Assembly: GCA_030688365.1 (NCBI GenBank)
Contig: JAUYIE010000018.1
Location: forward strand, 33,973 to 97,972
Origin: a bacterium
GTDB taxonomy: Bacteria > Patescibacteriota > Patescibacteriia > JACQRZ01
Length of the DNA stretch: 64,000 nucleotides
Direction: 5' to 3'
Shown here: positions 1-64,000 of the stretch, piece after piece
How the letters are laid out: each line of letters opens with the position of its first letter
How positions within the stretch are numbered: the stretch's first letter is position 1
Made by a program: the position numbers and the translations under genes
Notes under the pieces: model-generated
Seen by the model: the letters and a program-made list of their open reading frames with translations, nothing else
What the model was told of the DNA's origin: nothing
Databases searched by the model: none

Positions 1-1357
1 TGCCGATAGGAAGCTGCTGTCCATCTTCTTGTGCAAAACCGCAGGGGAGGGAAACAGCCGGGATGCCGGCTATATTTGCCGAAACAGTAAAAATATCCGC
101 CAAATACATGGAAAGTGGGTCATCAGTTTTTTCACCAAATTTAAATGCAGGGGTCGGAGATGTCGGTGCAATCATGCAATCCACATCCTGAAATGCTTGG
201 CTATAATCCTTGCGAATCATGCTACGTACGAGTTGTGCTTGATTGTAATATTGATCTGCATACCCCGATGAAAGTACATACGTACCAAGCATGATGCGAC
301 GACGCACTTCAGCGCCCAGCCCTGTTTCACGAGAAGAAAGATAGGTGTTCCACAGATCTTTGGCAGATGTATCGCGATAGCCATATCGTATCCCATCATA
401 ACGCGATATGTTTGCACATACTTCTGCCGGCATGATGATATAATACACAGCCAATGCATACGGAGCATGTGGTAATGAAACCTCAACGATCGTCGCGCCT
501 GCAGATTTCAAGGTCTGTGATGCTTCGCGTATTGCCTTTTCTACACGAGGATCAAGTCCGTCAATAAAAAACTCTTTAGGAATACCAATGCGTAATCCTT
601 TGACATCATGAGAAAGCTTTGTTGGCTCAATGACAGGACCTGCGTGCGCAGTGGTGGAATCATATGTATCACTACCGCGAATAGCGTCATAAACAATCGT
701 CGCATCTTGTACTGTACGAGCAAATGAGCCAATCTGATCCAAAGAAGATGCCATGGCAATAGCACCGTATCGCGAAACTTGTCCGTAGGTAGGTTTGAGC
801 CCGACAACACCACACAACCCTGCTGGCTGACGAATAGATCCGCCCGTGTCAGTCCCAAGCGCAAATACTGCTTCACCTGATGCGACGGCGACAGCTGATC
901 CACCCGATGAACCACCAGGAACACGTGCTGTATCCCAAGGATTTTTTGACGGTCCATATGCCGAGTTTTCAGTTGATGATCCCATCGCAAATTCATCAAG
1001 ATTTGTTTTTCCAATAATAATCGCACCGTGCTCTGCAAGTTTTTTCATGACTGTCGCGCTATAGGACGCTTTGTAATTTTCCAATATTTTGGATCCTGCC
1101 GTAGTGATGGTTCCTTGTATGAGAATATTATCTTTTATTGCACCTGGGATGCCTTCCATTGGGTGAAGTGGGTGACCTTTGGAAATTTTTTCATCAACAT
1201 TTTTTGCGTGCTCTAGCGCCGTGTCTTGATGTAATGACAAAAACGCGTGCAGTGTATCATCATGCACGTCAATCGTTGCGAAAGATTCTTCCACTATTTC
1301 AGTGCAAGAGAACTCTTTGTCCTTATACCCTTGCTGGATTTCTGAGATGGTTTTCAT
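1..1357 (-). CDS. gatA: Glu-tRNA(Gln)/Asp-tRNA(Asn) amidotransferase subunit A. It is partial: the C-terminal end runs off the window start.
   Basis: Minus-strand ATG at 1355-1357 gives MKTISEIQQ... The amidase signature GGSSGGSAVAVASG is encoded on the minus strand as the shadow of plus ORF 846..1064. The gene lies immediately downstream of gatC. It is absent from the ORF track only because it is truncated at the window edge. Confidence 0.85.
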   Translation of the reverse strand, partial: MKTISEIQQGYKDKEFSCTEIVEESFATIDVHDDTLHAFLSLHQDTALEHAKNVDEKISKGHPLHPMEGIPGAIKDNILIQGTITTAGSKILENYKASYSATVMKKLAEHGAIIIGKTNLDEFAMGSSTENSAYGPSKNPWDTARVPGGSSGGSAVAVASGEAVFALGTDTGGSIRQPAGLCGVVGLKPTYGQVSRYGAIAMASSLDQIGSFARTVQDATIVYDAIRGSDTYDSTTAHAGPVIEPTKLSHDVKGLRIGIPKEFFIDGLDPRVEKAIREASQTLKSAGATIVEVSLPHAPYALAVYYIIMPAEVCANISRYDGIRYGYRDTSAKDLWNTYLSSRETGLGAEVRRRIMLGTYVLSSGYADQYYNQAQLVRSMIRKDYSQAFQDVDCMIAPTSPTPAFKFGEKTDDPLSMYLADIFTVSANIAGIPAVSLPCGFAQEDGQQLPIG

Positions 1358-39500: not shown

Positions 39501-40618
39501 ACCACAAGCTGGCCGACAATCAATGCGGTAGAGCTTCCCGCTAATCCAGTTTCGGTAGCGGATGCGATTTTTGTTAATTGTTGACCTCCAAATAGTGGAA
39601 ACCCGTTTACTGCAAATGTTCCACCGGTCAATGTCGCATTTGTAACAACCCCAAGTTCAGGCGGAAACGTATCTCGCTGAAACAATACTATATCTCCAGC
39701 ACTTGGAGTTGTATATGTACCATTTGGCACAAATGATCCTGCCCCAAAAGCAGGGAAAAACCCGCTTCCACCAGTAGAAAGTTGTGCAAAACGTGAACTT
39801 GCTGTATAGGTCGGCGCGCTAGAAACAGTCACATCAAATCCATCAGGAAATGGTTTTATACTAACACCAACAGGTGTAACCCCTTGAGTTAGGGTAATGT
39901 TATCAGGCGTAAACGTAGATCCATCCATCTGTTCATTAAACTGCATGTGTAAAAATGTATTGATTGGCACATTTGTGGATGCTGTCATTGGGGCTGTACT
40001 TGAAACAGTCGGTGCGACAGTATCAATTGTAATGGCAGAAGTAACCACAGGGGTTATTGTTGGAGAACCAGAATCCGTGACTATACCATCCGCAGGCACT
40101 GTGAATGTAAACGCATGATCATTAACTGCCCCCGCTGATGTTCGGTATACCAAATAATATGTACCCGCGGCTCCAGGGGTTGTAAGAGTTAATGTTGTGG
40201 ATCCATTACTCCATGCAGATACTGTATCCATAGGCACTACGACATCCGTACCATCAAATGATCCAGCCGTATCCCCTGCATCGTCGTACAAAGCAACACC
40301 GGAAGCGACTTCCGATGCTGCATCAAGAGTAGCCAAATCAGCTGTCGTAAAACCAGATGCACCACTGTCGGTAGCAGTAACAGTAATTGAGTTTAAAACT
40401 TCACCAGCATCAACAGCAATCACGAGCTTAATGGCTGCAGCCGGCACGCTCGACGCTAATGCTCTGTTATTCGCGTAATTGATAAGACTCGTCACTGTTG
40501 GTGTGACGGTTGCCAACGCCACTTGCGCTGTAAACGGCGCAACTCCCACCGAACCAAATATTGTCATTGCTACAACAAATGTGTGTAGTATCCGACGGAA
40601 CCGAACATTTCCTCTCAT
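33557..40618 (-). CDS. giant secreted S-layer-like surface protein (2353 aa). It contains SbsA-type Ig-like (Big_5-like) domains, many carboxypeptidase-regulatory-like beta-sandwich repeats, an FN3 domain, a Thr/Asp-rich linker and a conserved about 200-aa C-terminal domain.
   Basis: Signal peptide MRGNVRFRRILHTFVVAMTIFGSVGVAPFTAQVALA. Big_5-like segments (IDTVAPTVSSTAPMTASTNVPINTFLHMQFNEQMD; DATAPTVLGTSPTNSATGVSRSSSISIGFSKDID). Repeated ...GTYTVKVPAGTYTVKCFFPGVG / VPPGTYTVRVGHPAYG / VPAGIYNLRVDKPGYR modules. FN3 (PSTPTGLTVTDAGTGSTARLTWTAV...TTYYYKVSAVNASDQES). Linker TTSTTTDTTTTDNTTTTENTVTTDTTVTT. Confidence 0.85.
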   Translation of the reverse strand: MRGNVRFRRILHTFVVAMTIFGSVGVAPFTAQVALATVTPTVTSLINYANNRALASSVPAAAIKLVIAVDAGEVLNSITVTATDSGASGFTTADLATLDAASEVASGVALYDDAGDTAGSFDGTDVVVPMDTVSAWSNGSTTLTLTTPGAAGTYYLVYRTSAGAVNDHAFTFTVPADGIVTDSGSPTITPVVTSAITIDTVAPTVSSTAPMTASTNVPINTFLHMQFNEQMDGSTFTPDNITLTQGVTPVGVSIKPFPDGFDVTVSSAPTYTASSRFAQLSTGGSGFFPAFGAGSFVPNGTYTTPSAGDIVLFQRDTFPPELGVVTNATLTGGTFAVNGFPLFGGQQLTKIASATETGLAGSSTALIVGQLVVANSSDRYAWHMVTAGTTVDDEALRFDGDEAVPSLVSGSRVSSMAMDATATDNGVTGGGTLAVSQGDLVFVQLAGGSYGWHLVTTAGGLSSVEGFGESTAVLDGTDAASSLVEDSSQMSKLTPAAQGLATDEVTAFTFGDMLFASTTANAANNGSYAFHMVTSPATGVSHTALRLDNSSSPLTISSSYTLTATTSVTDLAGNALASNAVVTFSTGAVSGTNTTPPFVQSSIPQGGNQQFPPNGVVKITFSVDMSVSGGSSGTNSVTNPANVGLFLDNYGAPGAAVSATNTYDSATKTVTITPASALAVNTGYVAKVLSSAYSTTDTPSADFFLSFRTAGAVDATAPTVLGTSPTNSATGVSRSSSISIGFSKDIDPSTITTSTIKLQKTSDDSYITGAVTYNPGSRSANFTPAAQLLGSTEYRIRALAGSSGVKSVAGLQLGAATPANDYTSTFTTNNTTDSTAPKVTFSGADNFGVAITFSEQVKSGGGPNAADNIANYALESPVGTSASLSGKTVTYDGETKTANITGLALQNSSTFKVTVTPAVQDLANNSIDTTGTPPNNVAYGTVQDSDTTGGQLGPGNGPAMDPGMQGMNPTRVTPMVRSAGATSNYKLEFLATTSIPVLGQIVLTFPAGFDVTNVGKATAGTASFCNSDINGPMTGTVTLGAVAGDADAGTVTINTAGAATSANAFVCVDLTGIVNSTVPSSSGYTVGVSTRDTADNYRSILESKTSSPFFLGATGSRTLTVNVFKDANTDGNNDAGEGINDVTAFLFSPATGGKEATTANDVVDGVATFSNLADGDYMVGIKPNTNIDVAFNSAPQPIIISANTVKNFALSSAAAITISGTVTGTNGTIIDVFASSPNGFTKKTITLSGGADAYSLPVSANETYNVGVGPSVPEQFMTPGAPPSPPPDFTFMPPANVQVNVASASVTEETVTGLAFTLTTANKTITGFVLDSNGTGVSTANIFCRPVAASTTGMADGFGTGTQTTTTGTFTVNVTQGVYLCGVFKPGMPPVPDKQITVGAASNTPSSLTFRLSAGTTSLTISGTIKDDAGNAIPYAGVSGRKVTSSADTTAVGGDSSNFVGGPTDANGAYTLYVSAGTWVVEAFAPGFGRLGTKTIVISSSNATGQDFSAETLSMGSIRGTVTKGGTAQQGVMVRAETADGTSGNMTITATDGTYTVKVPAGTYTVKCFFPGVGEGTPLTSVAVAADTTTSGQDCTLGAPITLTINVTDGTNPVTNAGVDVRDSNGRGNFTNVSTTSGANAVYTVNVPPGTYTVRVGHPAYGKIGETTGVNTTRTITHTAAAGAIFAVTGTVTGDGSNLSGAWVSLTGAATGTTNVIALGSQTASNGTFSVSVPAGIYNLRVDKPGYRSPAESAVAVTAATAVGTIALTTASKTITGTISISGSGVSNAFVDANDGLGGYSVAQTDSAGAYSLAVDTGTWSVRAHAPGYEGGPMSVIVGGSSVSSQDMSLTAIPNFVVKPERPETVTPTSGGFFTNSDIGDNFKLNIPANALGTGSNAATVTTKINTAMPTPPRGSILSKNAVTITAVDSSGQKLSSLNDSVTIVIPYDEADIPAGSSEANLVIGTWNDATQAYDTLTTTVDTDNNTLTATVAHFSDFAPLMPADGAPSTPTGLTVTDAGTGSTARLTWTAVDGASTYNIYQSTDNSSFPLLASPTTTSYTATGLSASTTYYYKVSAVNASDQESAASSASSVTIAAAASSSGGVIVSGPSSSSSSTATTSTTTDTTTTDNTTTTENTVTTDTTVTTSPTLSVADARAQQVAKIKAEAEKVKMNDVATLASDVGQKRDIGMEKKYESTIVARVVSSLTPAATKAQVLNFVTYGTPTTVVLGAGERAGVVNSFEAAFGYVPTSSGDWEDVIKIANGRWPGTLNAKREKAVIGSFKKVYLRDADLSNPHDQAAIAVMAYGLRSDKRNLKSEAAAIKSFRAIYKKVPVSAAEWDVVRAIAYSGAIR

Positions 40619-52070: not shown

Positions 52071-52775
52071 CTATGGCGTAGGAGTAGGCAATAAGGAGTT
52101 GATATGCTCTTGAATGCGCGCATCATCAGGCGATTGCTTTGCAATTTCCTGCCAGTATAAAAGTGATTCGGATAGATAATTGTTTTGCTCCAAAAAAAGC
52201 GCATACGCACGCATGAGATTTGGATCTTGATTTGTCCCCATCAGACCTTCAATGAATACACCACGTGCGACCGCCACCTCATCAAGGTGATACCAATATA
52301 ATTCAGCAAGTTTTTGATAGTTTGATGATTCAGTTGGTGCTTTACTGATTGCCTGGCGGTATGCGTCTTTGGCATCTTCGTAATTTCCCGCCGCTTCATG
52401 TACCGAGCCTATGTTTGAAAACGCGACAAAGGAAGTCGGATCAGCGTTCGCGGCACGTTTGTACGCATCAAGTGATAAATCATTTCTACCCAAACTGGCA
52501 AAATGAATACCCAAATCAATGTACTGCATCGTCATTGTCGGCTCATCTTTTGTATCACCGCTTGCGATCTCACTCTCAATATCACGGATAGACTGCTCAA
52601 TCGTACTCCTTTGCTCATCAGTTAGCGTCGTTTGAGTAACATAATGTGATGCCATATATTGCACATGATCTATTTGTTTTTTAACCGTAGGTACCACAAA
52701 CCATAGTGCTATCAGCACCACCACAATCGCGAGTATTATGATAATAAATTTCCAGGAAGAAAGTGTTCGTTCCAT
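52071..52775 (-). CDS. membrane-anchored TPR-repeat protein
   Basis: N-terminal TM (FIIIILAIVVVLIALWFVV). At least 3 TPR-like helical hairpins (AYKRAANADP...GNYEDAKDAYRQAI). Confidence 0.6.
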   Translation of the reverse strand: MERTLSSWKFIIIILAIVVVLIALWFVVPTVKKQIDHVQYMASHYVTQTTLTDEQRSTIEQSIRDIESEIASGDTKDEPTMTMQYIDLGIHFASLGRNDLSLDAYKRAANADPTSFVAFSNIGSVHEAAGNYEDAKDAYRQAISKAPTESSNYQKLAELYWYHLDEVAVARGVFIEGLMGTNQDPNLMRAYALFLEQNNYLSESLLYWQEIAKQSPDDARIQEHINSLLPTPTP

Positions 52776-52907: not shown

Positions 52908-54035
52908 CTATCTTTTGGCTCCTGAATACGCGATCGCACGCACTACATCCCATTCACGGGCAGTCGTGGCGATTTTGCCATACACTGCTCTAAATGTTTT
53001 AAGTGCGGCCGCTTCGCTGTCAAGATTACGATGCACTGATCGCAGACCATATCCCATGACCGTCACTGCTGCGCTGTCATTAGGATTTTTCATGTCTGCT
53101 GCGCGTTTGTAAACCAACTTAAAGTTGATTTTTGCGCGATCTTCGGCTGCTTTGCTTGTTTGAGAAGGAAAGCGACCGTTTGCGATCTTGAGTGCGTCTG
53201 ACCATCCACTTTCCGTTGTAGGAAAGGAGCCAAATGCTGCCAAGTAGCTATTGAGTACACCGGCGCGCTCTCCTGCCCCCAACTTAAGGGTAGTAGGCGT
53301 ACCGTATGTAATGAACGCTACCATTTCTTGCTTATTACTTGTATCCACTGTTTGACCTTTTGAAATAGTAGCAAACAATGTTGTCTCCGTCTTTTGCTCT
53401 GCTGATAGACTTGATTTGGCGTTGACTGAAGCGGCGAGTTCTGCCGGAGTAGATGAGATCGTCGCTGATTCAGCTTTTATCGCTTCAATCTGTGCTGTAC
53501 GTGCGTCTTCTACGGAAGTAGTAGGTGCAGGCGTAGCAACAGTCGTCGTATCAGTTGTTGTTGTGTCTGTCGTTGTGTCGGTTGTAGTGTCTGTTGTTGT
53601 GTCAGTCGTAGGAGCAGACGTTGAAGTACCACCACCACCACCGCCAACTACACCGCCACTTGCTGCGGGTGTACTCGCTACAGTACATTCCGTTGCGGTT
53701 GGCGTAAATACAACACTCGTAAGTGGTCCAGTCAACGTTACAGAATTTTGTGATGATGTACATGTCTGCGTGTATGCGCCACCGTTTGTCAAAAGATATC
53801 TATCTGCAGACACAACAGTGAATGTACTTCCACTAGGAACTGTAACGGTAAAGGTTGTCGCGCCGACATCAAGTTGTGTAGCAACAGACCCCGTAGAGAT
53901 CGTTAACGTAATATCATTCACTGACATGTAAGTGTCTGTACTGTATGTGAGATCCGCTGCTGATGCCAACTGTCCTACTCCTGCGCTTGCAAGCACGAAG
54001 ACACCAACCACCAGAGAAACTATTTTTTTCTTCAT
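52908..54035 (-). CDS. secreted protein (375 aa): signal peptide, about 100-aa beta-rich N-domain, (TDTTT)n linker, and a C-terminal domain paralogous to that of the 2353-aa giant protein
   Basis: Signal peptide MKKKIVSLVVGVFVLASAGVGQLASA. Linker TDTTTDTTTDTTTDTTTTDTTT. The C-terminus aligns to the giant-protein C-terminus at about 50% identity (TYGTPTT.LGAGERAGV.NS..AAFG...NGR.P...NPND.AA..VMGYGLRS..RNL.SEAAA.K.FRA.Y.K....EWDVVRAIAYSGA.R). Confidence 0.65.
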   Translation of the reverse strand: MKKKIVSLVVGVFVLASAGVGQLASAADLTYSTDTYMSVNDITLTISTGSVATQLDVGATTFTVTVPSGSTFTVVSADRYLLTNGGAYTQTCTSSQNSVTLTGPLTSVVFTPTATECTVASTPAASGGVVGGGGGGTSTSAPTTDTTTDTTTDTTTDTTTTDTTTVATPAPTTSVEDARTAQIEAIKAESATISSTPAELAASVNAKSSLSAEQKTETTLFATISKGQTVDTSNKQEMVAFITYGTPTTLKLGAGERAGVLNSYLAAFGSFPTTESGWSDALKIANGRFPSQTSKAAEDRAKINFKLVYKRAADMKNPNDSAAVTVMGYGLRSVHRNLDSEAAALKTFRAVYGKIATTAREWDVVRAIAYSGAKR

Positions 54036-54068: not shown

Positions 54069-56675
54069 TTATTCAATACAGATGTAATTAATGACTTTTG
54101 CTGATGCGGTCCACGCCGATGCTGGAGTAATAGTAAGTGCTGTAGCTGATGTCGTGGCAACAGGTTTAATGGTACCAGCATCCTCAAAATCAGTAGCTGT
54201 TGTCGCATCACCTGCTGAAATTATACAGACAGGTGCAGCACTATATGTCTTATCAAATGCGAGAATGATAGCATTTGTGTCAGCCGTTGTCGCTGTACGG
54301 ATCTGCCCACGCATGTCAGTACATGTTCCTGCACCATTTCCAGCAGTACAAGTTGGAACTTGTCCAGCATATGTAGCAACAGGTGCTGTTGTCTGCGTTG
54401 ATCTCAAGTGAGAACCAGCTTGGTCACCTGCATTGATAATAACCGCGCCGGTTGCGTCACCGATAGTGGTACGCGTTCCTTGACCGATCGTCAATGTAAT
54501 ATTTCCTCCTGCCTTTGAAGCATCTTGACCCGCACCGGCAGCACCTGATGCGATTGTTACATTTCCACCCGCACCATCAGTCGTCGCACCGTCTCCACCG
54601 GCACCTGCCGTCAGAGTAATCGCACCACCGGCTCCACCGGTAAGACCTGTTCCCGACCCACCGGCACCGGCGGTAAGAGCGTATGCTCCACCAGCACCGT
54701 TTGTACCAGCACCAGTTGAGTTCACACCACCGGCACCAAGAGTAATAGTCATTGCTCCACCAGCACCAGAATCAGCAGAGGCACCTGTGGCGATTCCACC
54801 ATCACCTGTATTGATCGCGAGTGCGCCAGCAGCACCACCAGCTTCTGCTGCGGCAGGAGTACTACCCGCACCTGTTGTTACTGTTATCGCGCCACCAGCT
54901 CGTGCTGCCGTACCAGCGGTACCACCAGCACCTGATGTGATAGCAATCGCGCCACCTGCAGCATCAGTGCCAGCATCGCCACCTATTATAGAAACTGTAC
55001 CTGGTACGTTGTCAAGATCTGCTGTTCCAGACTGGACAGTCACTGCACCTGATACTCCACCAGCCGCAACACCAGAGCCCAAGGTAACCGCACCTGTCGC
55101 ACCAGCTGTTGATGCTCCGGAAGCAATCGTAACTGCACCAGATGCACCTGTTGCTGTTTGAGTTCCACCAGTGATAGCTACTGCACCACCGGCACCTGTC
55201 GCACCAGCGGCACCACCAGTGATAGCAATGGCACCACCGTTACCGGTACCGTTTCCATCACCACCGACAAGACTTGCAACCCCACCAACAGCGTCAGTCG
55301 TACCTGCACCACCTGTCACTGACACGGCACCACCAGCACCAGAGGTTGCGCCACCAGCACCACCAGTTAATGATCCAGCACCACCGGCACCTGTCGCACC
55401 AGCGGCACCTGCTACCAAGGTAACAGCACCACCGTTACTTGCCAGACGTCCCGCACCAGCGGTAAGTGTTACTGCACCACCAGCCGCGCCTGTCGTACTT
55501 GAACCCGCACCAGCTGCACCAGCGGTAATACTTACTGCACCACCGGCACCTGCTGTACCAGCACCACTTGTCGCTCCACCGGCACCTGCTGTTAAGTTCA
55601 ATGCACCACCGGCACCTGCTGTACCAGTTGTATCAGCTCCACCGGCACCAGAAGTTATGGCATAGGCACCACCGGCACCACCGGTACCAACCACTGCACC
55701 ACCACCTGCACCCAGTGTCCATGCTACCCCACCACCGGCACCACCGGTACCAGCATCTGAAGCGGCTCCACCAGCACCAAAAGTTACTGCCAAAGCACCA
55801 CCGGCACCACCGATACCAGTTACGGTGACTCCACCTGCACCTGTTGTTATAGAATGAGCTCCACCTGCACCACCGGTATTATCCAACGTTGCACCACCAC
55901 CTGCACCCGATACTGAAGTGATTGCACCACCGGCTGAAGGAGATGCGATAGCGGTTGTACCCGCTGCACCTGCCGTCATGGTGATTGCACCACCGGCTGC
56001 TCCGCCACCCGTACCACCTGCACCTGCTGTTACTGCTACCGCACCACCGGCAACGGTGCCTGCACCGTTATTTCCTGCCTGTACTGTAACGGTTCCCGGC
56101 ACACCTGTTGTTGTTGTTGCACCTGATGACAATGTAACTGCACCAGAAGCCGCTGCTGTTGCCGTTCCTGATCCGAGAGTCAAAGCACCCGAAATACCAG
56201 CCGAGTTACCTGATGTCAAAGAAACAGCACCGGTCGTTCCTGAAGTCGTTGTTGTTCCTGATGCGAGAGTCAAAGCACCCGAAGCAGCAGCTATGGCTGT
56301 TCCAGAAGCGAGACCGACTGCACCCGAAGCGGCGGCAGAAGCACCCGAAGCGAGTGTTAACGCACCAGTCGTTCCTGAAGTCGTTGTTGTTCCCGACTTA
56401 AGGTTTACTGCACCTGAATCCTGTGCGGTACCTGCACCGGAGGTGAGTGTCAACGCACCACCAGTCGCTGCTGTACCTGCACCTGCAGTTGCGGTAATCG
56501 CGCCCGCTGAAGCTGCAGTCACTGTGTATGCGCCATCAGACGCCACTGTGTTTGCGCTAAATGTAAGCGCCGCCATTGCAGGTTGGGTGATGCCAAACAT
56601 CAACGCCAACGCCGCGACGCCAACCACCGGCACAATACGTGCTCGTGTGTGGCGCAAGAAAGAGTGTTCTCTCAT
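54069..56675 (-). CDS. secreted Gly/Ala/Thr-rich low-complexity repeat protein (868 aa) with non-repetitive Cys-containing C-terminal domain
   Basis: Signal peptide ...ALMFGITQPAMA. Hundreds of G-A-G-G-A / T-A-G-A-G-G units. The last about 110 aa are non-repetitive with 4 Cys. The DNA is strongly GC-rich relative to its surroundings. Confidence 0.65.
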   Translation of the reverse strand: MREHSFLRHTRARIVPVVGVAALALMFGITQPAMAALTFSANTVASDGAYTVTAASAGAITATAGAGTAATGGALTLTSGAGTAQDSGAVNLKSGTTTTSGTTGALTLASGASAAASGAVGLASGTAIAAASGALTLASGTTTTSGTTGAVSLTSGNSAGISGALTLGSGTATAAASGAVTLSSGATTTTGVPGTVTVQAGNNGAGTVAGGAVAVTAGAGGTGGGAAGGAITMTAGAAGTTAIASPSAGGAITSVSGAGGGATLDNTGGAGGAHSITTGAGGVTVTGIGGAGGALAVTFGAGGAASDAGTGGAGGGVAWTLGAGGGAVVGTGGAGGAYAITSGAGGADTTGTAGAGGALNLTAGAGGATSGAGTAGAGGAVSITAGAAGAGSSTTGAAGGAVTLTAGAGRLASNGGAVTLVAGAAGATGAGGAGSLTGGAGGATSGAGGAVSVTGGAGTTDAVGGVASLVGGDGNGTGNGGAIAITGGAAGATGAGGAVAITGGTQTATGASGAVTIASGASTAGATGAVTLGSGVAAGGVSGAVTVQSGTADLDNVPGTVSIIGGDAGTDAAGGAIAITSGAGGTAGTAARAGGAITVTTGAGSTPAAAEAGGAAGALAINTGDGGIATGASADSGAGGAMTITLGAGGVNSTGAGTNGAGGAYALTAGAGGSGTGLTGGAGGAITLTAGAGGDGATTDGAGGNVTIASGAAGAGQDASKAGGNITLTIGQGTRTTIGDATGAVIINAGDQAGSHLRSTQTTAPVATYAGQVPTCTAGNGAGTCTDMRGQIRTATTADTNAIILAFDKTYSAAPVCIISAGDATTATDFEDAGTIKPVATTSATALTITPASAWTASAKVINYICIE

Positions 56676-56825
56676 AGCTTGTAAGCTTATTAATATTAAA
56701 AATCAAAACACAAAATAATTTTTGCCTTCGTAAGTAAGCAGCTGTCAAACAGTATAGCACTTTTTCTCATGAACTCACCTGTTGATAACATTATTTATCA
56801 TTTTTCTGCAAAAAAAATATAAATG

Positions 56826-57470
56826 CTATGGTAAAGCACTTATATCCACTTCATCACCAAGTTGTATGCCGTTCCTTTGGATAAACCCAGCCGGTACTTC
56901 CAAAATATAGTTTATTGGCACGTTTGGCTCAAAAGTATCAGGCACACTTTGAGAAGAAATCTCTGCTTTCATATCCACCACAAGACGACTATCATTTATC
57001 CAGATAAGATCCACATCAAAGATCATACCTTCCGCACTATAACTATATCGGCTGGGATTGCTTAACACATACAACATACCATGCCCCCGCGGTGGTGCAT
57101 CTCGGCCAACCAGCCCTTTTTCCTGTTTTGCACGCGTATCAGCTACTTCAACAGTCATGGGGATATCAGCAATAGTAATCGGTATTTCTTTAAAATCATC
57201 AGGACTGTCTGTACTTGATACATCAAGAGAATCACCAGCACCGTCTGGTGTCAAGCTATATGGCGTTGTAATAATACCTTCCCCGCTAGAGAGAGGTATC
57301 TCACCTGAAACTGCCGATTCAGAAATATCTGCCGTTATTAGATCATCGGTGTTTTTCATAGTAGTCGGTACAGAGGATGTGGCTGTCCTACCAAAAATCA
57401 ACCACCCTGCAACCGCAACCAAAAGCACTATAACAATAGCTATTCCTATGTAAAACGTCTTTGCTGTCAT
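56826..57470 (-). CDS. membrane-anchored DUF192 (COG1430) family protein
   Basis: N-terminal TM FYIGIAIVIVLLVAVAGWLIF. C-terminal region ...GMLYVL...GMIFDVDLIWIN...YILEVPAGFIQRNGIQLGDEV matches the DUF192 pattern. ATG at 57468-57470 (the track start is a GTG). Confidence 0.55.
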   Translation of the reverse strand: MTAKTFYIGIAIVIVLLVAVAGWLIFGRTATSSVPTTMKNTDDLITADISESAVSGEIPLSSGEGIITTPYSLTPDGAGDSLDVSSTDSPDDFKEIPITIADIPMTVEVADTRAKQEKGLVGRDAPPRGHGMLYVLSNPSRYSYSAEGMIFDVDLIWINDSRLVVDMKAEISSQSVPDTFEPNVPINYILEVPAGFIQRNGIQLGDEVDISALP

Positions 57471-57479
57471 ATTACCCAC

Positions 57480-57854
57480 TTATTTTCCCGCTTTTTTCAG
57501 AGCATCTGCTGCAGGACTGGTATCATCAAGCGTTCCATAAAACATCACATTTGATTCATTGATATAGAGATCTTGTGGTGCCCAGACCGCTTCTGATAAC
57601 GGTACGAGTTGGAAAGTATCTTTTTCACCTTCTGCGCCAGCGGTCACGGACAAGAAATAGCCATTTGTCATCTTCAACCGAGGAAATGTCGTAAGTTTAC
57701 CCACATAAATCTGTCCTGTCTGCAGATATACCAATGAATATCCATCCCCTTCTTTGTTCCACATCTTCTTATACCCAAAATAACCAAGGATAAGCAATAC
57801 GATGATGATCACTACAGTCACTGTAGTCTTTGACCCAAGAGATTTCATTTTCAT
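57480..57854 (-). CDS. small membrane-anchored hypothetical protein
   Basis: From the internal ATG: MKMKSLGSKTTVTVVIIIVLLILGYFGYKK... The longer track start at 57959 would overlap the strong terminator of the upstream gene. Confidence 0.4.
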   Translation of the reverse strand: MKMKSLGSKTTVTVVIIIVLLILGYFGYKKMWNKEGDGYSLVYLQTGQIYVGKLTTFPRLKMTNGYFLSVTAGAEGEKDTFQLVPLSEAVWAPQDLYINESNVMFYGTLDDTSPAADALKKAGK

Positions 57855-57955
57855 AGAAACAATGCCGTTAAGTATGAATAAAAATAAGTATATACAGTAT
57901 ACCAACCACAAGATCAGTGTCAACAAAAAATAACTGCGCGTGTTACTACATATCC

Positions 57956-57993
57956 ACAAAAAAAGACCCTCGCCATAATGACGAGGGTCTTTT
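57956..57993 (-). terminator. strong Rho-independent (bidirectional-type) terminator after the 1361-aa surface protein gene
   Basis: 10-bp GC-rich stem AAGACCCTCG (57963-72) / CGAGGGTCTT (57982-91), loop CCATAATGA. An A7 run lies upstream on plus, giving U7 after the stem on the minus transcript. Confidence 0.7.
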
Positions 57994-58049
57994 GCGCGTA
58001 GTCATGATGTCTTTATCACATCATAAGCGCGAATACGTTATTTCGAGGA

Positions 58050-61000
58050 TTAGTAGCTAAGCGTACCACCAAGGACAGGCATGTTTCTGGTATTTGTAAT
58101 AACACCATAGTTTACCTGGTCGTCCCAGTTGATATCAGCAACACCGGCGATATCAGCACGAAGTGTTTCGTCTGATGTCGCACCTGTGGTGTCACCTTTG
58201 ACGACAAACTTCATGGTCGTACCAGCAGCGATGCTTTGGCCAATAGTACCAGTGTATGCGATTGCCGCACTGTTCTGGTTGTTGGTTATAGCATTAGCTG
58301 CGGTAGCGCTCAAGTAGTTGAAGCCAATCGTCGCGTTGTTACTCAACTGACAAGCAGTGGTCGTAAGTTGAGTTGCGTTGGCGATTGCAGTAACCACACA
58401 GCCGGAATCACGGGTGACAGCAGTACCAGTAGAGTCATATCCCATGACATCTACCGTATCGCCGATAGCAAATCCACTAGTGCTTGCGACAGTGACAGTT
58501 GTGACAGTGTCAGCCAAGTCCGCGGTAAGCAAGCTTTGCGCACCGAAATACAGTTTACCAACACCTGGTTGAGCTGGTGCGTAGGTGACACCGACATCTA
58601 TACCAGCATAGCCGGAAATCGTACCGACAACAGTGATAGTAATGACAGTCGCTGATACCGCGGTCACAATACCGCGCAACGTGGTTGTTACAGACGTATC
58701 ATTGACTAACACGGTCGCACCGACGGGAATACCATCCCAGTCACCGGAAGTACCGGTAACAGCGAGAGATTGACCGTCTACCGCCGCGGAAACACTCACG
58801 AGATCCTGTACAGACGTTTCTGTAGCAAGAGGATTGATAGTGTCAGTACTCTTATAGAGATTAGCATTTCCTGTACCTGTCGTGTCAACAGAACCGGAAA
58901 TAGTAAGAGCAGCGTTGTTTAAGATCGCAGCATATCCACTGTTTGCAACCGCATCAAACTCTAAGATACTTGCACCAGCTCCAGCAACAGCTGTACCTGA
59001 AGGTGACGAAGATGCCTTATCAACAACAACAAGAGTTCTGTAGATCACCTGTGCAGTACCGGTTGCAGAAGTCACAGTTTCATCAATACCTTGACCTGAC
59101 TGTGCGCCACGAGTCGTGACGTTTGCGTTAGACGCGATATTGAGAGTATGTGAGCCACCGGAAACAGCTGAACCAAAGGATCCGACAGAACCCTTAAGGG
59201 TCAAAACTTTTGTCGTATTCTTTGGAATCACCCAGTTTGATGCCAATGTAAACGTTGCCGTTCCATCGGATTGCGCACTCAATGACGCAACAGTGCCAAG
59301 CAATGTTGAACCATCATACAACTTCAAGTTGGAGAGAGAACCTCCATAAGATGTTGTATCAGTGATTACGATTGATGAAACATTAGCATCTTCTGGTGAA
59401 CCAGCGGTAAAGTCAAAGATAGCTAATGTTTGATCGGTGTTACCCATGACGAGTTGACCTGCAACAGGAGTGGAAGCATTGGCAGTAATAGTCAATGTTC
59501 CAGTAGAAGCGATCACCAATGTCTGCAATGAGACAGCGGTCAATGCGGTTGTCGCGTCAGTACTTGTATTTGATCCAGTCGCTGTAGCGCTGACAAACTC
59601 AAGTCCGACTTCAGCAGTCGCATATCCATCAGCACCAGTCAAAATGTCTGCGTATGCATCAATCACATATTGTCCGCCTGCAGGGATATTCACTGTAGGT
59701 GAGAGACTAAATGTGAAGTCAGCATCAGCAGCACTTGACAAAGTACCTTGGACAGGAGCGAGTGCCACACCCTCATGCATCAGTACAAGATTCTGAAAGT
59801 TGCCCCCAAAATTTGAAGTCGCATCAGCGTCTTCATCTCCGAGTACAACCTGTGTGAGATTGACTGATTCACCTGAACCGGCAGTAAGAACAAGAGAACC
59901 GACCTTAATATTCGTCGCACCAACCACACCAGTAGGAGTAATTAATGACGAGTCAGCTACTGAAGTATTCTTTGCTCTACTCAATGCACCTGTCTGTGCG
60001 GTCAATGTGAGACCCGTTGCAGCTGAAGTAGCGACATTGGTCAAAGATGTCTGACCCGTCGCGTCTGTTGAACCCGCAACAAGACTGACAGTGATAGTAT
60101 CGTTCGCTGCGAGAGCTGTTCCTGTATTGGTGGTTGTATCAGCACGATACTCAAATACACCGGTAGTACCAGCAGGGATAACAACAGTGTTACCCAACGA
60201 ATATACTTCAGTTGTTACATCTGCGACAACAGTATCAGTAGTACCTACCTGTGAACCGTTGTAGTACAACTTACCATTATCTAGTTCGTCTGTAGCATCA
60301 AGATCAATCACTGAATTCACACTCACCCTGACATACGTAACCTTGATGTCCTCACCATTTGCTTTGTAATCAAAGCGGGCGAGTGCTTGGTCCGTCATAC
60401 CAGCAGCAATGTTGCCTGAAGGTGCGTCGGCTGAACGTGAAACAGTTAATGTACCGTTATTGATGTTGGTACCATCACCTGATGGATCTGGATCAGCAAC
60501 AGTAAAGGCCGCTCCTGCCAATGCTGGGGTTGTATCTACACCGTAGTTGGTGTCAGTTGATACAAAGTCAGCAGTTGAACGAATGGTGAACTTGAATGCA
60601 CGACCAGTACCTTTTGAAACAATACCCATCAAAACAAATACTTTGTTTTGTCCGGATGCGATTTCATAAGGAGTAGCAGACAAATCAAACGTAACTTTAT
60701 TGTCTGAACCAATCTGTGCCGTTGATCCTACCTGTGCTCCACCGACAGTCAACATCAAGTCTTGGATAGCATCAGTGGAGATCGTTCCCACCATTGTGAG
60801 GACAATCTTCTTGATTTGCATCTTCTGACTGTTTGCGACAGTAGTGAATCTCCACAATTCTTGTGAGTTTGCGCTTGGATCAATCGTTGCGGGGAAGGTA
60901 GTTGGAGCGGGGGTAATGTTGATATACCCAAGATCAGTGATAGCAGCGATGCTAAAACTGTTACCAGACATAGGATAACTTCCTGCGACGGTACCACCTG

Positions 61001-62135
61001 GCATCATGGTGATGTCAGAAGCAGCATTTACAGAAAAGTTAATTGTCTTGGTTCCTGAAAGAGCGGCAGCAATGTTTACACCCACCCAGATGGTCTTTGA
61101 ACCACCTGCAGGGATAGAGAACAAACCAGCTGCATTGTTGAAGGTAAAGACCTTACTGGAAGATCCTGACACTTCTGCAAGTTTGGTTGAACCCTCATAG
61201 AGGTAAAGATTGTTCACATCTGCGTCAACAGACACGCCACCTCGGGTTAATTTCAAGGTATTGATTGTCTGTGCCGCTGAAGTGCCGTTTGCAAAATTGA
61301 GCTTCAAAATAGGAGCAGCGTTTTGCATTACCAATGCGTCATCAGACAAAAGTGTGCCTGATGCCGGTGTGTCAGATGCTACGGATACAGTCAATGCGCC
61401 GGTAACGGGGACAGGAGTCGTTCCATTGCTCATAAATGTTGCAATGGAGCTTTCCATACCAGTGATACTGGTACCTACTGCCAACGTGTTGAAAACTGTG
61501 TCAGAGACAGTCTGAATGAATTCAGAGCGGAAGTTATTTGCGGTGAACGCATTGAAGTCCGCGATTTTTCGCTTTGTTGTACCATCAGCATAATAAATAT
61601 CTGATGATGATGCTGTCTTGATGAGACTTCCTGCAGACGGGGTTGAAGTAATAATACTGTCACCCGACGTGTAGTTGGTGAAGAATGCATCGTTGACGTC
61701 ATCAATCTGTTGATTCCAATTTGATCCATAAAGATCCATGGCGATTTGCTCGTTGGATACCCAACGAAGCTTGCCGCCTGGTTCTACTGCGTATACTTTT
61801 GGATCAGTGGTAATTTTCACGAGACGGGTACCTGCTCGATATACGACGTTACCGCCGATCGAGAGTGCTTGCAATTCCGCATCAGTGATTGTTTTCACTT
61901 GTGAGAAATCAGCAAACCAGGTCTTAAATGTTTTTTCATTAGGAAAAACATAACGCTTACCATCAGAACCATAGTAGTATACGGCTGCGCCTGAGGCCTT
62001 GATGAGGTCACCTGCTGCCAATGTTGTAGCCGCACTTACGGGTACAATGGAAGCAAACCCCATAGACCACAACACAGTGGTTGCCATTACAGCTGTGGTA
62101 AGAGCTTGTTTACCTGCTTTTAATACTTTTGACAT
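58050..62135 (-). CDS. giant secreted surface protein (1361 aa): signal peptide, about 150-aa N-terminal globular domain, long Thr/Ser/Ala/Gly/Val-rich beta-rich region
   Basis: Start at ATG 62133-62135, preceded by GAAAGGAAAG 8 nt upstream; the track's 62171 start has no spacing to its SD. Signal peptide MSKVLKAGKQALTTAVMATTVLWSMGFASIVPVSA. Remainder is low-complexity but non-identical repeats, ending ...GGTLSY. Confidence 0.8.
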   Translation of the reverse strand: MSKVLKAGKQALTTAVMATTVLWSMGFASIVPVSAATTLAAGDLIKASGAAVYYYGSDGKRYVFPNEKTFKTWFADFSQVKTITDAELQALSIGGNVVYRAGTRLVKITTDPKVYAVEPGGKLRWVSNEQIAMDLYGSNWNQQIDDVNDAFFTNYTSGDSIITSTPSAGSLIKTASSSDIYYADGTTKRKIADFNAFTANNFRSEFIQTVSDTVFNTLAVGTSITGMESSIATFMSNGTTPVPVTGALTVSVASDTPASGTLLSDDALVMQNAAPILKLNFANGTSAAQTINTLKLTRGGVSVDADVNNLYLYEGSTKLAEVSGSSSKVFTFNNAAGLFSIPAGGSKTIWVGVNIAAALSGTKTINFSVNAASDITMMPGGTVAGSYPMSGNSFSIAAITDLGYINITPAPTTFPATIDPSANSQELWRFTTVANSQKMQIKKIVLTMVGTISTDAIQDLMLTVGGAQVGSTAQIGSDNKVTFDLSATPYEIASGQNKVFVLMGIVSKGTGRAFKFTIRSTADFVSTDTNYGVDTTPALAGAAFTVADPDPSGDGTNINNGTLTVSRSADAPSGNIAAGMTDQALARFDYKANGEDIKVTYVRVSVNSVIDLDATDELDNGKLYYNGSQVGTTDTVVADVTTEVYSLGNTVVIPAGTTGVFEYRADTTTNTGTALAANDTITVSLVAGSTDATGQTSLTNVATSAATGLTLTAQTGALSRAKNTSVADSSLITPTGVVGATNIKVGSLVLTAGSGESVNLTQVVLGDEDADATSNFGGNFQNLVLMHEGVALAPVQGTLSSAADADFTFSLSPTVNIPAGGQYVIDAYADILTGADGYATAEVGLEFVSATATGSNTSTDATTALTAVSLQTLVIASTGTLTITANASTPVAGQLVMGNTDQTLAIFDFTAGSPEDANVSSIVITDTTSYGGSLSNLKLYDGSTLLGTVASLSAQSDGTATFTLASNWVIPKNTTKVLTLKGSVGSFGSAVSGGSHTLNIASNANVTTRGAQSGQGIDETVTSATGTAQVIYRTLVVVDKASSSPSGTAVAGAGASILEFDAVANSGYAAILNNAALTISGSVDTTGTGNANLYKSTDTINPLATETSVQDLVSVSAAVDGQSLAVTGTSGDWDGIPVGATVLVNDTSVTTTLRGIVTAVSATVITITVVGTISGYAGIDVGVTYAPAQPGVGKLYFGAQSLLTADLADTVTTVTVASTSGFAIGDTVDVMGYDSTGTAVTRDSGCVVTAIANATQLTTTACQLSNNATIGFNYLSATAANAITNNQNSAAIAYTGTIGQSIAAGTTMKFVVKGDTTGATSDETLRADIAGVADINWDDQVNYGVITNTRNMPVLGGTLSY

Positions 62136-62300
62136 AAAGTCTTTCCTTTCGTAGTTATTATTAGTGACCATCTCCAGCGAACCTTTGCGATTCCTTTGAG
62201 GAAAAGCGGTCTCGACCTTTACTGAAGCGGACTAGATACGGCTTTTAAAAAAGTTGCCCTTTTTAAGTTTCGTGCCTAGATTTTAAACAAAGGGGAGTTT

Positions 62301-63482
62301 TTATTTTGGCTCTTCTGTTGAATTATTATTATTTTGGTTATTTTCATCAAGAATTTCTGTTTTTTGTTCTGTTTGGTTGTCTGACGTATTTTCCTCATCT
62401 ACGTGCGTATCATCTGATGTTTCTGGTGGATCCGTATCTGTTGAATCGTCTATCCTCACCAGCGCATCCGCGCTATCTTCTGCATCTATCACGAGTTGGT
62501 AGGATTCATCCAATTTCATTAACGCCATTTTTAAATCATTTTTTTCAAGGGATTTTTTTGCTGTTTCTAGTTTGTCTGTTGCTTCTTTGGAGTCCTGGGT
62601 CGCTTTGGCGACTTGTTTTACATCAGCTGTTTTTGTATCTATAGCGATTTTTACCGTTTCATTGAGAATAGCGACTTTTTCTTCCGCTTTTTTAATACGC
62701 TGTTCTATGTTGCTTTTGACATCCGCGGAAGGGGAATCAATCTTAGCAGTCTTTTCTATGGCAACCGCAAGCGCTTTACTGGTAGTACTATTTGCCTGCG
62801 CAATCGCTTCTTTGACTTTAGGAGCGGTGTTTTTCTTTACTTCCACTGACAGAGTGCTCTTTGTCTTGGTCAACGCTTCTTCCGCGCGTACCGCCTTTTG
62901 ACTGATGGTATTTGCCACCGTAGCAACGCGTATCGGCTCTTGCGTACTCTTGATATCTTCAAGATGCTGACCGGCGCTACTAAGAGTAAACGTTACATCA
63001 CTTACCAAAGCATCTACTTTAGATGCTTTTTCTTCATCACTAATCGGTTGTTTTGATATGGCATCCAGTTCTACAAGTCGCTGTTCTACCAACTTCATTT
63101 GGAGTTCCGCCTTTTGATCAGCGGGAGCTAATGCTACTTGGATGTTTTCACTCGTCTTTTTTACACTATATAATGCGTCACCGGGCAAACTGTCCCTACT
63201 TCCCATCGCCGCCACTGATCCACCAAATAACAATGCGAGAAGTGCAAATGCGATAGCTGAAGGATGAGCAAGTACTGAACCGAAGGTATATCGGTACGCT
63301 CCGCTTGCAATAGTTTTCATATATACCTGTACACCAGCAACAACGCCAGGCCGTGACGTCCCCATGCCTTGAGACGCCATCTGTGACAACAAAAGTTCTT
63401 TACAAGAAGATTGCCATTGCGTACGTGGCGTAATCCGTTGTAGTGTTTGGAGTTGTTTTACGATTTTTCCGTTCATAGTCAT
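62301..63482 (-). CDS. putative anti-sigma factor: short cytoplasmic N-terminus, one TM helix, extracytoplasmic K/E/A-rich coiled-coil domain and acidic tail
   Basis: Immediately downstream (63 nt) of an ECF sigma gene and co-oriented. TM segment AIAFALLALLFGGSVAA at about residue 70-90. Start at ATG 63480-63482 (the track start 63500 is a GTG). Assignment is by context and topology only. Confidence 0.5.
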   Translation of the reverse strand: MTMNGKIVKQLQTLQRITPRTQWQSSCKELLLSQMASQGMGTSRPGVVAGVQVYMKTIASGAYRYTFGSVLAHPSAIAFALLALLFGGSVAAMGSRDSLPGDALYSVKKTSENIQVALAPADQKAELQMKLVEQRLVELDAISKQPISDEEKASKVDALVSDVTFTLSSAGQHLEDIKSTQEPIRVATVANTISQKAVRAEEALTKTKSTLSVEVKKNTAPKVKEAIAQANSTTSKALAVAIEKTAKIDSPSADVKSNIEQRIKKAEEKVAILNETVKIAIDTKTADVKQVAKATQDSKEATDKLETAKKSLEKNDLKMALMKLDESYQLVIDAEDSADALVRIDDSTDTDPPETSDDTHVDEENTSDNQTEQKTEILDENNQNNNNSTEEPK

Positions 63483-63545
63483 TATAAAAAATACCCGCAC
63501 GTATCTATAGTCAACACCATATCGTTTGCTTGTGGGTATTTGTTT

Positions 63546-64000
63546 TTATTTTTGTTTGAGTTTTCCTTTGAGCGCTTTGATACCCCTATGGAGCATCACA
63601 CGTACGGCGCCAGGCGATCTATCTACTATTTTTGCTATTTCTTTGAGAGTGAGATCGTTGAGGTAAAAAAGCGTAATGATTTCGCGATACGTATCTTTGA
63701 GTTCGCGAAGCGCTTTCTCTACCACGACCATGTCTGTTTTTAATGTCATTTTTTCTTCAAGCGTGAGATCTACCCTATCGGCGACGACGATGTCATTATC
63801 TTCCAACGATTCGGCGACCACCGTACCTCTTTTTCGGTAAAAATCTACCACTACATTTCGTGCTATCTTATAGATTACTGCCTGCAGATTTCCGATCACT
63901 CGCGCGTCCTTGATGTACTGCCATGTTTTTAAAAATGTTTCAGCAGTAAGATCTTCCGCATCGTGCGCGGAGGGTACTTTGAGGTAAATGAAGCGATAGA
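63546..64000 (-). CDS. ECF-type sigma-70 family RNA polymerase sigma factor (partial; N-terminus beyond window end)
   Basis: Upstream of the track ORF, region 2 continues in frame (...FIYLKVPSAHDAEDLTAETFLKTWQYIKDARVIGNLQAVIYKIARNVVVDFYRKR). Region 4 HTH LTLKEIAKIVDRSPGAVRVMLHRGIKALK. The track ORF start at 63899 is an internal GTG. Confidence 0.75.
   Translation of the reverse strand, partial: YRFIYLKVPSAHDAEDLTAETFLKTWQYIKDARVIGNLQAVIYKIARNVVVDFYRKRGTVVAESLEDNDIVVADRVDLTLEEKMTLKTDMVVVEKALRELKDTYREIITLFYLNDLTLKEIAKIVDRSPGAVRVMLHRGIKALKGKLKQK

Follow-up and report, generated by a model that had tools for sequence, protein, structure and literature searches.

The 64-kb window analyzed here (the whole stretch of 64,000 nt from contig JAUYIE010000018.1 of a member of the Patescibacteriota) carries at its end a cassette of three genes, encoding a sigma factor of the extracytoplasmic function (ECF) type, a single-pass membrane protein, and a giant secreted protein of 1361 residues. 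Every open reading frame (ORF) of the cassette region is on the minus strand. A conserved structured RNA occupies the spacer ahead of the giant gene; this RNA was overlooked in an earlier interpretation made from the letters alone, here called the sequence-only reading. The coordinates, sizes, and distances given in that reading are correct, with one amendment, namely that the window ends within the sigma gene.

The window contains the 3' 455 nt of the sigma gene (150 codons and the stop codon; 63546..64000, minus strand), and its first 33 codons, like its promoter, fall outside, past position 64000. The truncated frame matches the Pfam domains Sigma70_r2 (E-value 1e-8) and Sigma70_r4_2 (E-value 1e-14). 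The full-length gene is present in L085, a second contig (from Logan) of the same organism, recovered via the annotated 391-residue membrane protein. The complete sigma factor is 183 residues long, contains only the region 2 and region 4 domains (Sigma70_r2, r4_2, and r4), and scores 87 bits against the NCBIfam model of the ECF superfamily, TIGR02937, the cut-off of which is 42.9. Judged by these domain matches, the first gene encodes an ECF (group 4) factor of the sigma-70 family, as the sequence-only reading had it. The best specific NCBIfam model is that of the BldN family (TIGR02952), of which the protein is not a member according to its score of 112 bits against a cut-off of 206. SigW models score 86–92 bits on the full-length protein, with equivalog cut-offs of 209–243.

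The membrane protein, hereafter the partner, is encoded at 62301..63482 (minus strand). The gap separating it from the sigma gene is 63 nt if translation begins at the ATG at 63482, or 69 nt if it begins at the NCBI-annotated start at 63476. The length of the protein is 393 residues from the ATG at 63482, 399 residues from a GTG at 63500, and 391 residues as annotated (P0121). The partner matches DUF5667 (PF18915) with 37.5 bits and an E-value of 3e-9, above the Pfam gathering score of 27, and the domain is present in all 20 partner homologs tested. A single strongly hydrophobic segment spans approximately residues 75–100, and all 74 partner homologs have a hydrophobic 19-residue stretch starting from about residue 71, with a median Kyte-Doolittle value of 2.1. 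A short cytoplasmic N-terminus is followed by a transmembrane segment and, outside the membrane, by the DUF5667 domain; a helical region and an acidic tail complete the protein. The N-terminal motif L..L..I.P...W...R..LL.Q, which contains no His or Cys, is common to 74 of 74 homologs, and the homologs also share an LPGD.LY.VK motif just outside the membrane. The HxxxCxxC signature of zinc-binding (ZAS / zf-HC2) domains was not found in the partner, to which Pfam assigns DUF5667 only, and a search of PDB sequences returned neither a significant match nor a solved homolog. The partner gene is always located directly downstream of the sigma gene. Because of its topology, already recognized in the sequence-only reading, and its strict co-occurrence with the sigma gene, we regard the partner as a putative anti-sigma factor. 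We infer from this genomic context that it binds the sigma factor.

The giant gene is located at 58050..62135 (minus strand), and its ATG is preceded by a Shine-Dalgarno-like GAAAGGAAAG at 62141..62150, read directly from the sequence. The CGAAAGG at this Shine-Dalgarno region is conserved in the subgroup alignment. The product is identical to a hypothetical protein encoded on a 107.6-kb contig of an NCBI metagenome-assembled genome, and 1598 homologs were detected; all those with a named source come from Patescibacteria. The sequence at the N-terminus, MSKVLKAGKQALTTAVMATTVLWSMGFASIVPVSA, has the appearance of a Sec signal peptide and is followed by an α/β domain at approximately residues 36–235 and a chain of immunoglobulin-like (Ig-like) domains. 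The window protein has no Pfam or NCBIfam match, including SLH, CWB2, LPXTG, or PG_binding_1 anchors or a sorting signal, and a search of PDB sequences gave nothing significant. The AlphaFold (AF2) model of P0016, a homolog of 1185 residues, has a predicted local distance difference test (pLDDT) value of 85 and shows an α/β N-terminal region and about eight β-sandwich domains. Foldseek matched this model to Ig-like strings, including alpha-2-macroglobulin MG domains, the Ig-like domains of PrgB, integrin legs, and pilins.

A model of the first 215 residues of the window protein reached a pLDDT of 92, and Foldseek matched it to the repeat domains of EccB1 with an E-value of 2e-4 and a probability of 0.99. 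EccB1 belongs to type VII secretion (PDB 5ebc, 3x3n, 4kk7), and its repeats are reported to resemble the wall-binding PlyCB. The TM-scores of the matches to the N-terminal domain are low, at 0.22–0.25, and the sequence identity is 10–12%. Wall binding is suggested by the fold of this domain. The best argument that the N-terminal domain anchors the protein to the wall is that PG_binding_1 takes its place in the closest homologs; PG_binding_1 occurs only in the paralogous or closest group, P0002–P0013. The N-terminal domain probably binds the wall, and the giant protein is probably a secreted, wall-anchored surface protein composed of Ig-like domains. It is a candidate component of a surface layer or an adhesin. 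The C-terminus, ..LPL.G.TLTY (window positions 58050-58070), is nearly invariant across the family, including the final Tyr, and might be a sorting or assembly signal.

An intrinsic terminator at 57955..57993 (minus strand; −25.2 kcal/mol, z −6.6, seven U after the stem) closes the unit. The next gene has a sigma-70-type promoter of its own at 57896..57923 (minus strand), TTGACA-16-TATACT with TG, which matches 11 of 12 consensus positions and marks the start of a new transcription unit.

Conservation of the cassette in Patescibacteria

One genome per GTDB species was searched with an alignment of 11 sequences, which identified 585 confirmed relatives of the giant gene. The best 80 of the 585 were fetched with their flanks and constitute the loci studied here. 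Synteny was assessed with phmmer, using three sigma and three partner queries against six-frame ORFs, in the 73 loci with at least 2.1 kb of upstream sequence. In 68 of the 73 assessable loci, the giant gene is preceded by both the sigma and the partner gene, co-oriented with it and in the order seen in the window. Four further loci contain a divergent anti-sigma-like ORF with the same N-terminal motif and transmembrane segment, and the last one is cut by a contig end. Pfam-marked gene calls on three independent contigs agree with this result. The cassette was found in Falkow-, Uhr-, Magasanik-, Kuenen-, and Kerfeldbacteria, and in other Patescibacteria. The co-conservation that the sequence-only reading had named as a check of its proposal is therefore borne out, and since the arrangement recurs in 68 of 73 species-level loci it is not due to chance. 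A functional link between the genes of the cassette is very likely from this conserved context.

The giant homologs of the PG_binding_1 type, a subgroup that includes the closest relatives of the window protein by identity, served as a negative control. Three of their loci (L001, L086, and L087) have no sigma-domain gene upstream. The spacer RNA motif is absent from L001, the only locus of this type that was searched for it. Searches of a library of papers for the cassette, DUF5667, and the RNA motif found no description of them, and searches on the surface layer (S-layer) and sigma factors of Patescibacteria, ECF factors of Parcubacteria, and structured RNA of the candidate phyla radiation (CPR) found nothing relevant.

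A structured RNA in the spacer

The spacer between the partner and giant genes is 165 nt long (62300..62136, minus strand). The 9-mer AAAGGTCGA (AAGGTCG) is present in 66 of 77 spacers, compared with approximately one expected, and occurs once in the window, at 62220..62212. It belongs to an RNA fold composed of a stem, P1, and a hairpin, P2, with P2 stacked immediately against the 3' strand of the stem. The 9-mer, AAAGGUCGA in the RNA, is located in a one-sided bulge of 10–13 nt. In the window, the core motif spans 62173..62226 (minus strand), with the P1 strands UUCAG and CUGGA, the 5' bulge at 62220..62212, and an expanded P2.

We built a covariance model from three sequences and iterated it once. 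It has 61 matches in 1.14 Mb, 57 of which lie in sense orientation immediately before the giant gene. Two of the extra matches, at L055 12626 and 13181, were rejected as false positives in high-GC coding sequence. Pair counts were made on the alignment fitted to the covariance model; a MAFFT alignment of the RNA segments was unusable, being out of structural register. Standard pairs are formed in 91% of the alignment cells, compared with 52% in shuffles, and 289 cells are changed on both sides, compared with 90 in shuffles. The covariation score is 0.97, whereas shuffles give 0.24 (none of 500 reaches the observed value) and sliding the partners gives at most 0.2. All 11 pairs display compensatory changes and G-U pairs, with five to six pair types each; compensatory pairing confined to one strand is the general mark of a structured cis-acting RNA. 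RNAalifold yields the same P1/P2 structure. Unguided RNAfold predictions, made before the model, showed P1 as an enclosing helix for 58 of 70 sequences, and for 51 of the 58 the limits of P2 could be set.

Because its P2 is expanded, the window copy has a low covariance-model score. L016, the closest relative of the window, has the same RNA design with a change from U-A to U-G in P1. Upstream of the core, RNAfold predicts a leader hairpin, P0, at 62232..62279 (minus strand; −13.6 kcal/mol for 62227..62300), in the place of which L016 has a different hairpin. E-value scans with Rfam 15 of window positions 56000-64000 and of ten loci found no match at the motif. No consistent complement of the bulge was found downstream or at the ribosome-binding region.

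The RNA motif stays beside the giant gene when other genes are inserted into the spacer. A further well-formed AAAGGUCGA motif is present at L022 1379-1415 (minus strand), 105 nt upstream of a gene for a secreted Thr/Gly/Ala-rich protein (185..1273). It starts 23 nt past the stop codon of a gene that matches the 375-residue protein of the window (52908..54035) in the C-terminal domain. Because the motif is kept beside the giant gene and also has this additional copy, we assign it to surface-protein genes and not to the partner gene.

In the Falkowbacteria-like clade, the spacer measures approximately 470 nt and the leader RNA is much larger. There, a second conserved block, GAAGCGGGATTCCGAyTGATTTA, with a hairpin before it, lies about 200 nt past the core motif (L002, L006, L022-L026, L029, L030, L038, L041, L046, L073, L083).

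ECF-type promoters and the transcription unit

The full-length sigma gene of L085 is preceded, 45 nt ahead of its ATG and thus outside the window, by CTGTAAC-N17-CGACTTAT. The consensus of the ECF-type promoters in relatives is TGTAAC-N16/17-CGTCT. Promoters of the ECF family have an AAC-containing −35 element and a CGT-containing −10 element, usually in front of the sigma factor's own operon, and the L085 site conforms to this type. This sigma factor presumably recognizes it. In 25 of 70 loci, a regular expression, GTAAC-N15-17-(C/A)GT, identified a site whose end is approximately 10 nt from the ATG of the downstream sigma gene, and T precedes GTAAC in all 25 of them. A position matrix was built from these 25 sigma-operon promoters, with a site threshold of 15 bits.

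Sites of at least 15 bits are present in 47 of the 70 relatives. The best site is upstream of the sigma gene in 26 loci, at the sigma stop codon or between the sigma and partner genes in 10, and about 295 nt inside the sigma ORF in 11, to which five weaker CGAC variants can be added. The remaining 23 loci have no such site, or 18 if the five weaker sites are set aside. The 26 upstream sites precede the predicted start of the sigma gene by 32–55 nt or fall just within the ORF. In most of them the distance to the ATG is 32–33 nt, which implies that the sigma mRNA is leaderless. Where present, the ECF-type motif is always upstream of the partner and giant genes, and not always of the sigma gene.

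The internal sites, TGTAAC-N17-CGTCT within the linker of the sigma factor, were observed in L062, L063, L064, L071, L075-L077, L080-L082, and L084. They encode VTF...TS, in which GTA is the only codon used for Val and the codon before it has T as its last letter in every case, regardless of the residue specified; this points to a constraint at the level of DNA. A promoter at this position would start transcripts that lack sigma region 2. In the sister species L040 (1845-2047), L045 (1696-2096), L052 (945-1229), and L079 (4307-4700), a full-strength ECF-type promoter after the sigma gene is followed by 200–400 nt of A-rich sequence with no long ORF and with repeated AAAACAAAA. This stretch ends before the anti-sigma gene in a terminator-like hairpin, CTCAAAAA..TTTTTGAG with a T run, and may represent a sigma-dependent small RNA. 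The window has only the 63-nt gap at the same place.

The sequence-only reading had predicted an ECF-type promoter in the 165-nt spacer. We rejected this, by eye and then with the 25-site matrix, the best value of which in the window spacer is −3.1 bits. The sole exception among the spacers is L005/L021, where an ECF-like site of 13–15 bits is located at the 3' end of an inserted methyltransferase gene. In the whole window, the regular expression TGTAAC-N16/17-CG[TA]C found only two weak sites, both within coding sequence. Since the spacer lacks an ECF promoter, the sigma factor could control the giant gene only by read-through of the operon. Of the regulation proposed in the sequence-only reading, the conserved synteny stands and the promoter in the spacer does not.

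The distribution of terminators favors a single transcription unit, because they are rare before the giant gene and common after it. Terminator-like hairpins between the partner gene and the RNA motif occur in 8 of 57 loci and are mostly weak, and terminators after the giant gene occur in 35 of 50 loci, typically with −20 to −30 kcal/mol. No terminator is present between the partner and giant genes of the window, where an AAAAAG/CUUUUU stem was considered and found too weak. In L011, the RNA motif begins 7 nt past the anti-sigma stop codon, a distance that leaves no room within the spacer for a separate promoter upstream of the motif. All genes inserted between the partner and giant genes are co-directional with them, which fits read-through. 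The inserted genes include methyltransferase genes in L005/L021 and in L028, and HicB/HicA-like pairs, recognized by eye from the translations, which in four different species are located between the anti-sigma gene and the RNA motif (L008 4929-5382, L012 3633-4090, L030 2183-2649, and L083 4990-5450). Sigma control of the giant gene through read-through of one operon is plausible.

Proposed control of the giant surface protein

The cassette is probably an envelope module found throughout the Patescibacteria lineage and expressed as one transcription unit. The most economical reading, to which we give about an even chance, is that the three genes form a single operon under the ECF-type promoter and that the fate of the giant mRNA is controlled by its structured RNA leader. 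In such an operon, the membrane partner would keep the sigma factor inactive via its short cytoplasmic N-terminus, and its extracytoplasmic helical domain would sense the state of the wall or surface layer. The released sigma factor would transcribe the operon, and transcription would continue into the giant gene. The RNA element would set the fate of the giant mRNA by processing, stabilization, or the binding of a regulator. This RNA step would allow the cell to make far more of the structural protein than of its regulators. A broader proposal, which we offer only tentatively, is a phylum-wide circuit of surface-layer homeostasis, in which a DUF5667 membrane sensor would read the state of a layer of giant, wall-anchored Ig-like protein, the sigma factor would be released to transcribe one operon, and the RNA with the AAAGGUCGA bulge would mark surface-protein mRNAs for a dedicated post-transcriptional step such as processing, stabilization, or factor binding.

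Several observations weigh against the single sigma-driven operon. A clade of approximately 14–18 loci lacks any TGTAAC/CGTC promoter and has a sigma-70-like TTGATT-N17-TAttcT before the sigma gene. The spacers of 57 loci are not enriched in ECF-type sites, with a median matrix value of −1.5 compared with −1.0 in controls. The window's subgroup has conserved −10-like boxes on both sides of the motif, TAAAATCT upstream and CTAATnnTnAC downstream, and the Falkowbacteria-like group carries the −10-like box GAGATAAATTAA. In the window, TAAAATCT is located at 62278..62285 (minus strand). The box is kept only in the window's subgroup (the window, L016, L040, L045, and L079), 41–90 nt upstream of the RNA motif, and is absent from most other loci; it is a candidate housekeeping-type promoter element or a part of the leader. 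The partner lacks the zinc-binding signature of anti-sigma factors. The window copy of the RNA (62226..62173) scores 9.7 bits, with filters off. The additional motif copy in L022 has no sigma gene nearby, which indicates that the RNA element is not tied to the sigma operon.

The subgroup-specific −10-like boxes raise the possibility that the giant gene has its own promoter. According to this alternative, a housekeeping-type promoter in the spacer transcribes the giant gene with the RNA motif as its 5' leader, and the sigma pair is a neighbor because its DUF5667 ectodomain monitors the wall or the giant protein, its targets being its own operon or other genes and not the giant gene. We consider this the main rival, at appreciably less than an even chance. 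It would account for the spacers without an ECF promoter, for the RNA motif remaining with the giant gene after insertions, for the motif ahead of another secreted-protein gene that has no sigma gene, and for the PG_binding_1-type homologs, which manage without any nearby sigma gene. However, the TAnAAT upstream of the motif is missing in most loci, only 7 nt separate the anti-sigma stop codon from the motif in L011, and terminators are present after the giant gene and missing before it. Nor does the 64-kb window contain another ECF-type site.

It is very unlikely that the AAAGGTCGA region acts as a promoter or operator site in DNA instead of as RNA. The 9-mer is nearly invariant, is located upstream of a gene, and contains GTC, as many −10 elements of ECF promoters do. 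However, its flanks vary and yet stay complementary, with compensatory changes in all 11 pairs, and the frequent G-U pairs could form on the sense strand only. Almost all matches are on the strand of the giant gene, and no conserved −35 element is found at a fixed distance upstream. Still less credible, to the point of being almost negligible, is that the three genes adjoin one another simply because small genomes pack their genes compactly on a single strand, without any functional significance. In favor of this, the genes of the window are all on one strand, and the neighborhood is generally rich in envelope genes. Against this, the same order is kept in approximately 72 of 73 species, in which the giant proteins are 30–50% identical and the flanking genes differ.

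The single-operon reading can be compared with three known arrangements. In Streptomyces, sigma-BldN with its anti-sigma factor RsbN reportedly controls the chaplin and rodlin proteins of the surface sheath (a finding attributed to Bibb et al. 2012). Sigma-BldN is classified as ECF121 (PMC7826278). The cassette is similar to BldN/RsbN in that the output of its ECF sigma factor would be secreted surface-layer proteins and in that its single-pass, putative anti-sigma factor has no zinc-binding motif. In contrast to BldN/RsbN, the cassette partner is a DUF5667 protein and not RsbN, and the sigma factor has no N-terminal pro-sequence. Moreover, BldN targets have their own promoters, whereas the surface gene of the cassette has no such promoter before it.

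The consensus promoters in Bacillus subtilis are said to be TGTAAC-N17-CGAC for SigX and TGAAAC-N16-CGTA for SigW (attributed to Huang and Helmann 1998). The cassette promoter, TGTAAC-N16/17-CGTCT or CGAC, is almost of the SigX/SigW type. As in the envelope-stress systems of SigX, SigW, and SigM (RsiX, RsiW), the sigma gene of the cassette would be autoregulated and co-transcribed with the gene of a membrane anti-sigma factor. Unlike in those systems, the putative anti-sigma factor lacks an HxxxCxxC domain. Neither the conserved giant gene downstream nor the RNA leader has a counterpart there, and in many relatives the promoter is found past the sigma gene or within it, having been relocated.

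The mRNAs of S-layer and other major surface proteins, such as those of Lactobacillus and Thermus slpA, have long structured 5' leaders. Like these mRNAs, that of the giant gene would have a long untranslated leader with stable stem-loops; the encoded secreted surface protein is very large, and a strong terminator comes after the gene. The cassette differs in that the AAAGGUCGA bulge is invariant across classes of the phylum while the stems covary. This combination of an invariant bulge and covarying stems points to a specific ligand or protein and not to generic protection of the 5' end.

The wider window contains other genes for secreted and envelope proteins. Its strand bias is extreme, as nearly all long ORFs across the 64 kb lie on the minus strand. 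An 868-residue secreted protein (54069-56675, minus strand) without a Pfam match consists almost entirely of Gly/Ala/Thr repeats, and these dominate the local composition, with a G+C content of 56–59% compared with about 44% around them. A second giant gene (33557-40618, minus strand) encodes 2353 residues with Big_5, CarboxypepD_reg, fn3, and PEGA domains. The 20 kb around it are rich in envelope genes, including those for a subtilase with FG-GAP repeats, an HtrA-like protease, ComEC, a D-Ala-D-Ala carboxypeptidase, and sugar epimerases. A 234-residue TPR protein is encoded at 52071-52775 (minus strand). Four genes (for a 122-residue membrane protein, a DUF192 protein, the 868-residue protein, and the 375-residue protein) lie between it and the giant gene of the cassette. 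A TPR protein of the same size is encoded directly after the giant gene in L001, L002, and L086.

Patescibacteria, or CPR bacteria, are uncultivated and have tiny genomes with very few regulators, and almost none of their regulation or envelope biology has been characterized. The cassette, kept across several candidate phyla, offers a candidate major surface protein for these organisms. It also offers the sigma/anti-sigma pair most likely to report on the envelope, whose readable promoter motif allows a regulon to be defined in silico, and a small RNA motif that covaries excellently and has no entry in Rfam 15. The promoter positions before, after, or inside the sigma gene constitute a natural experiment on the evolution of ECF feedback.

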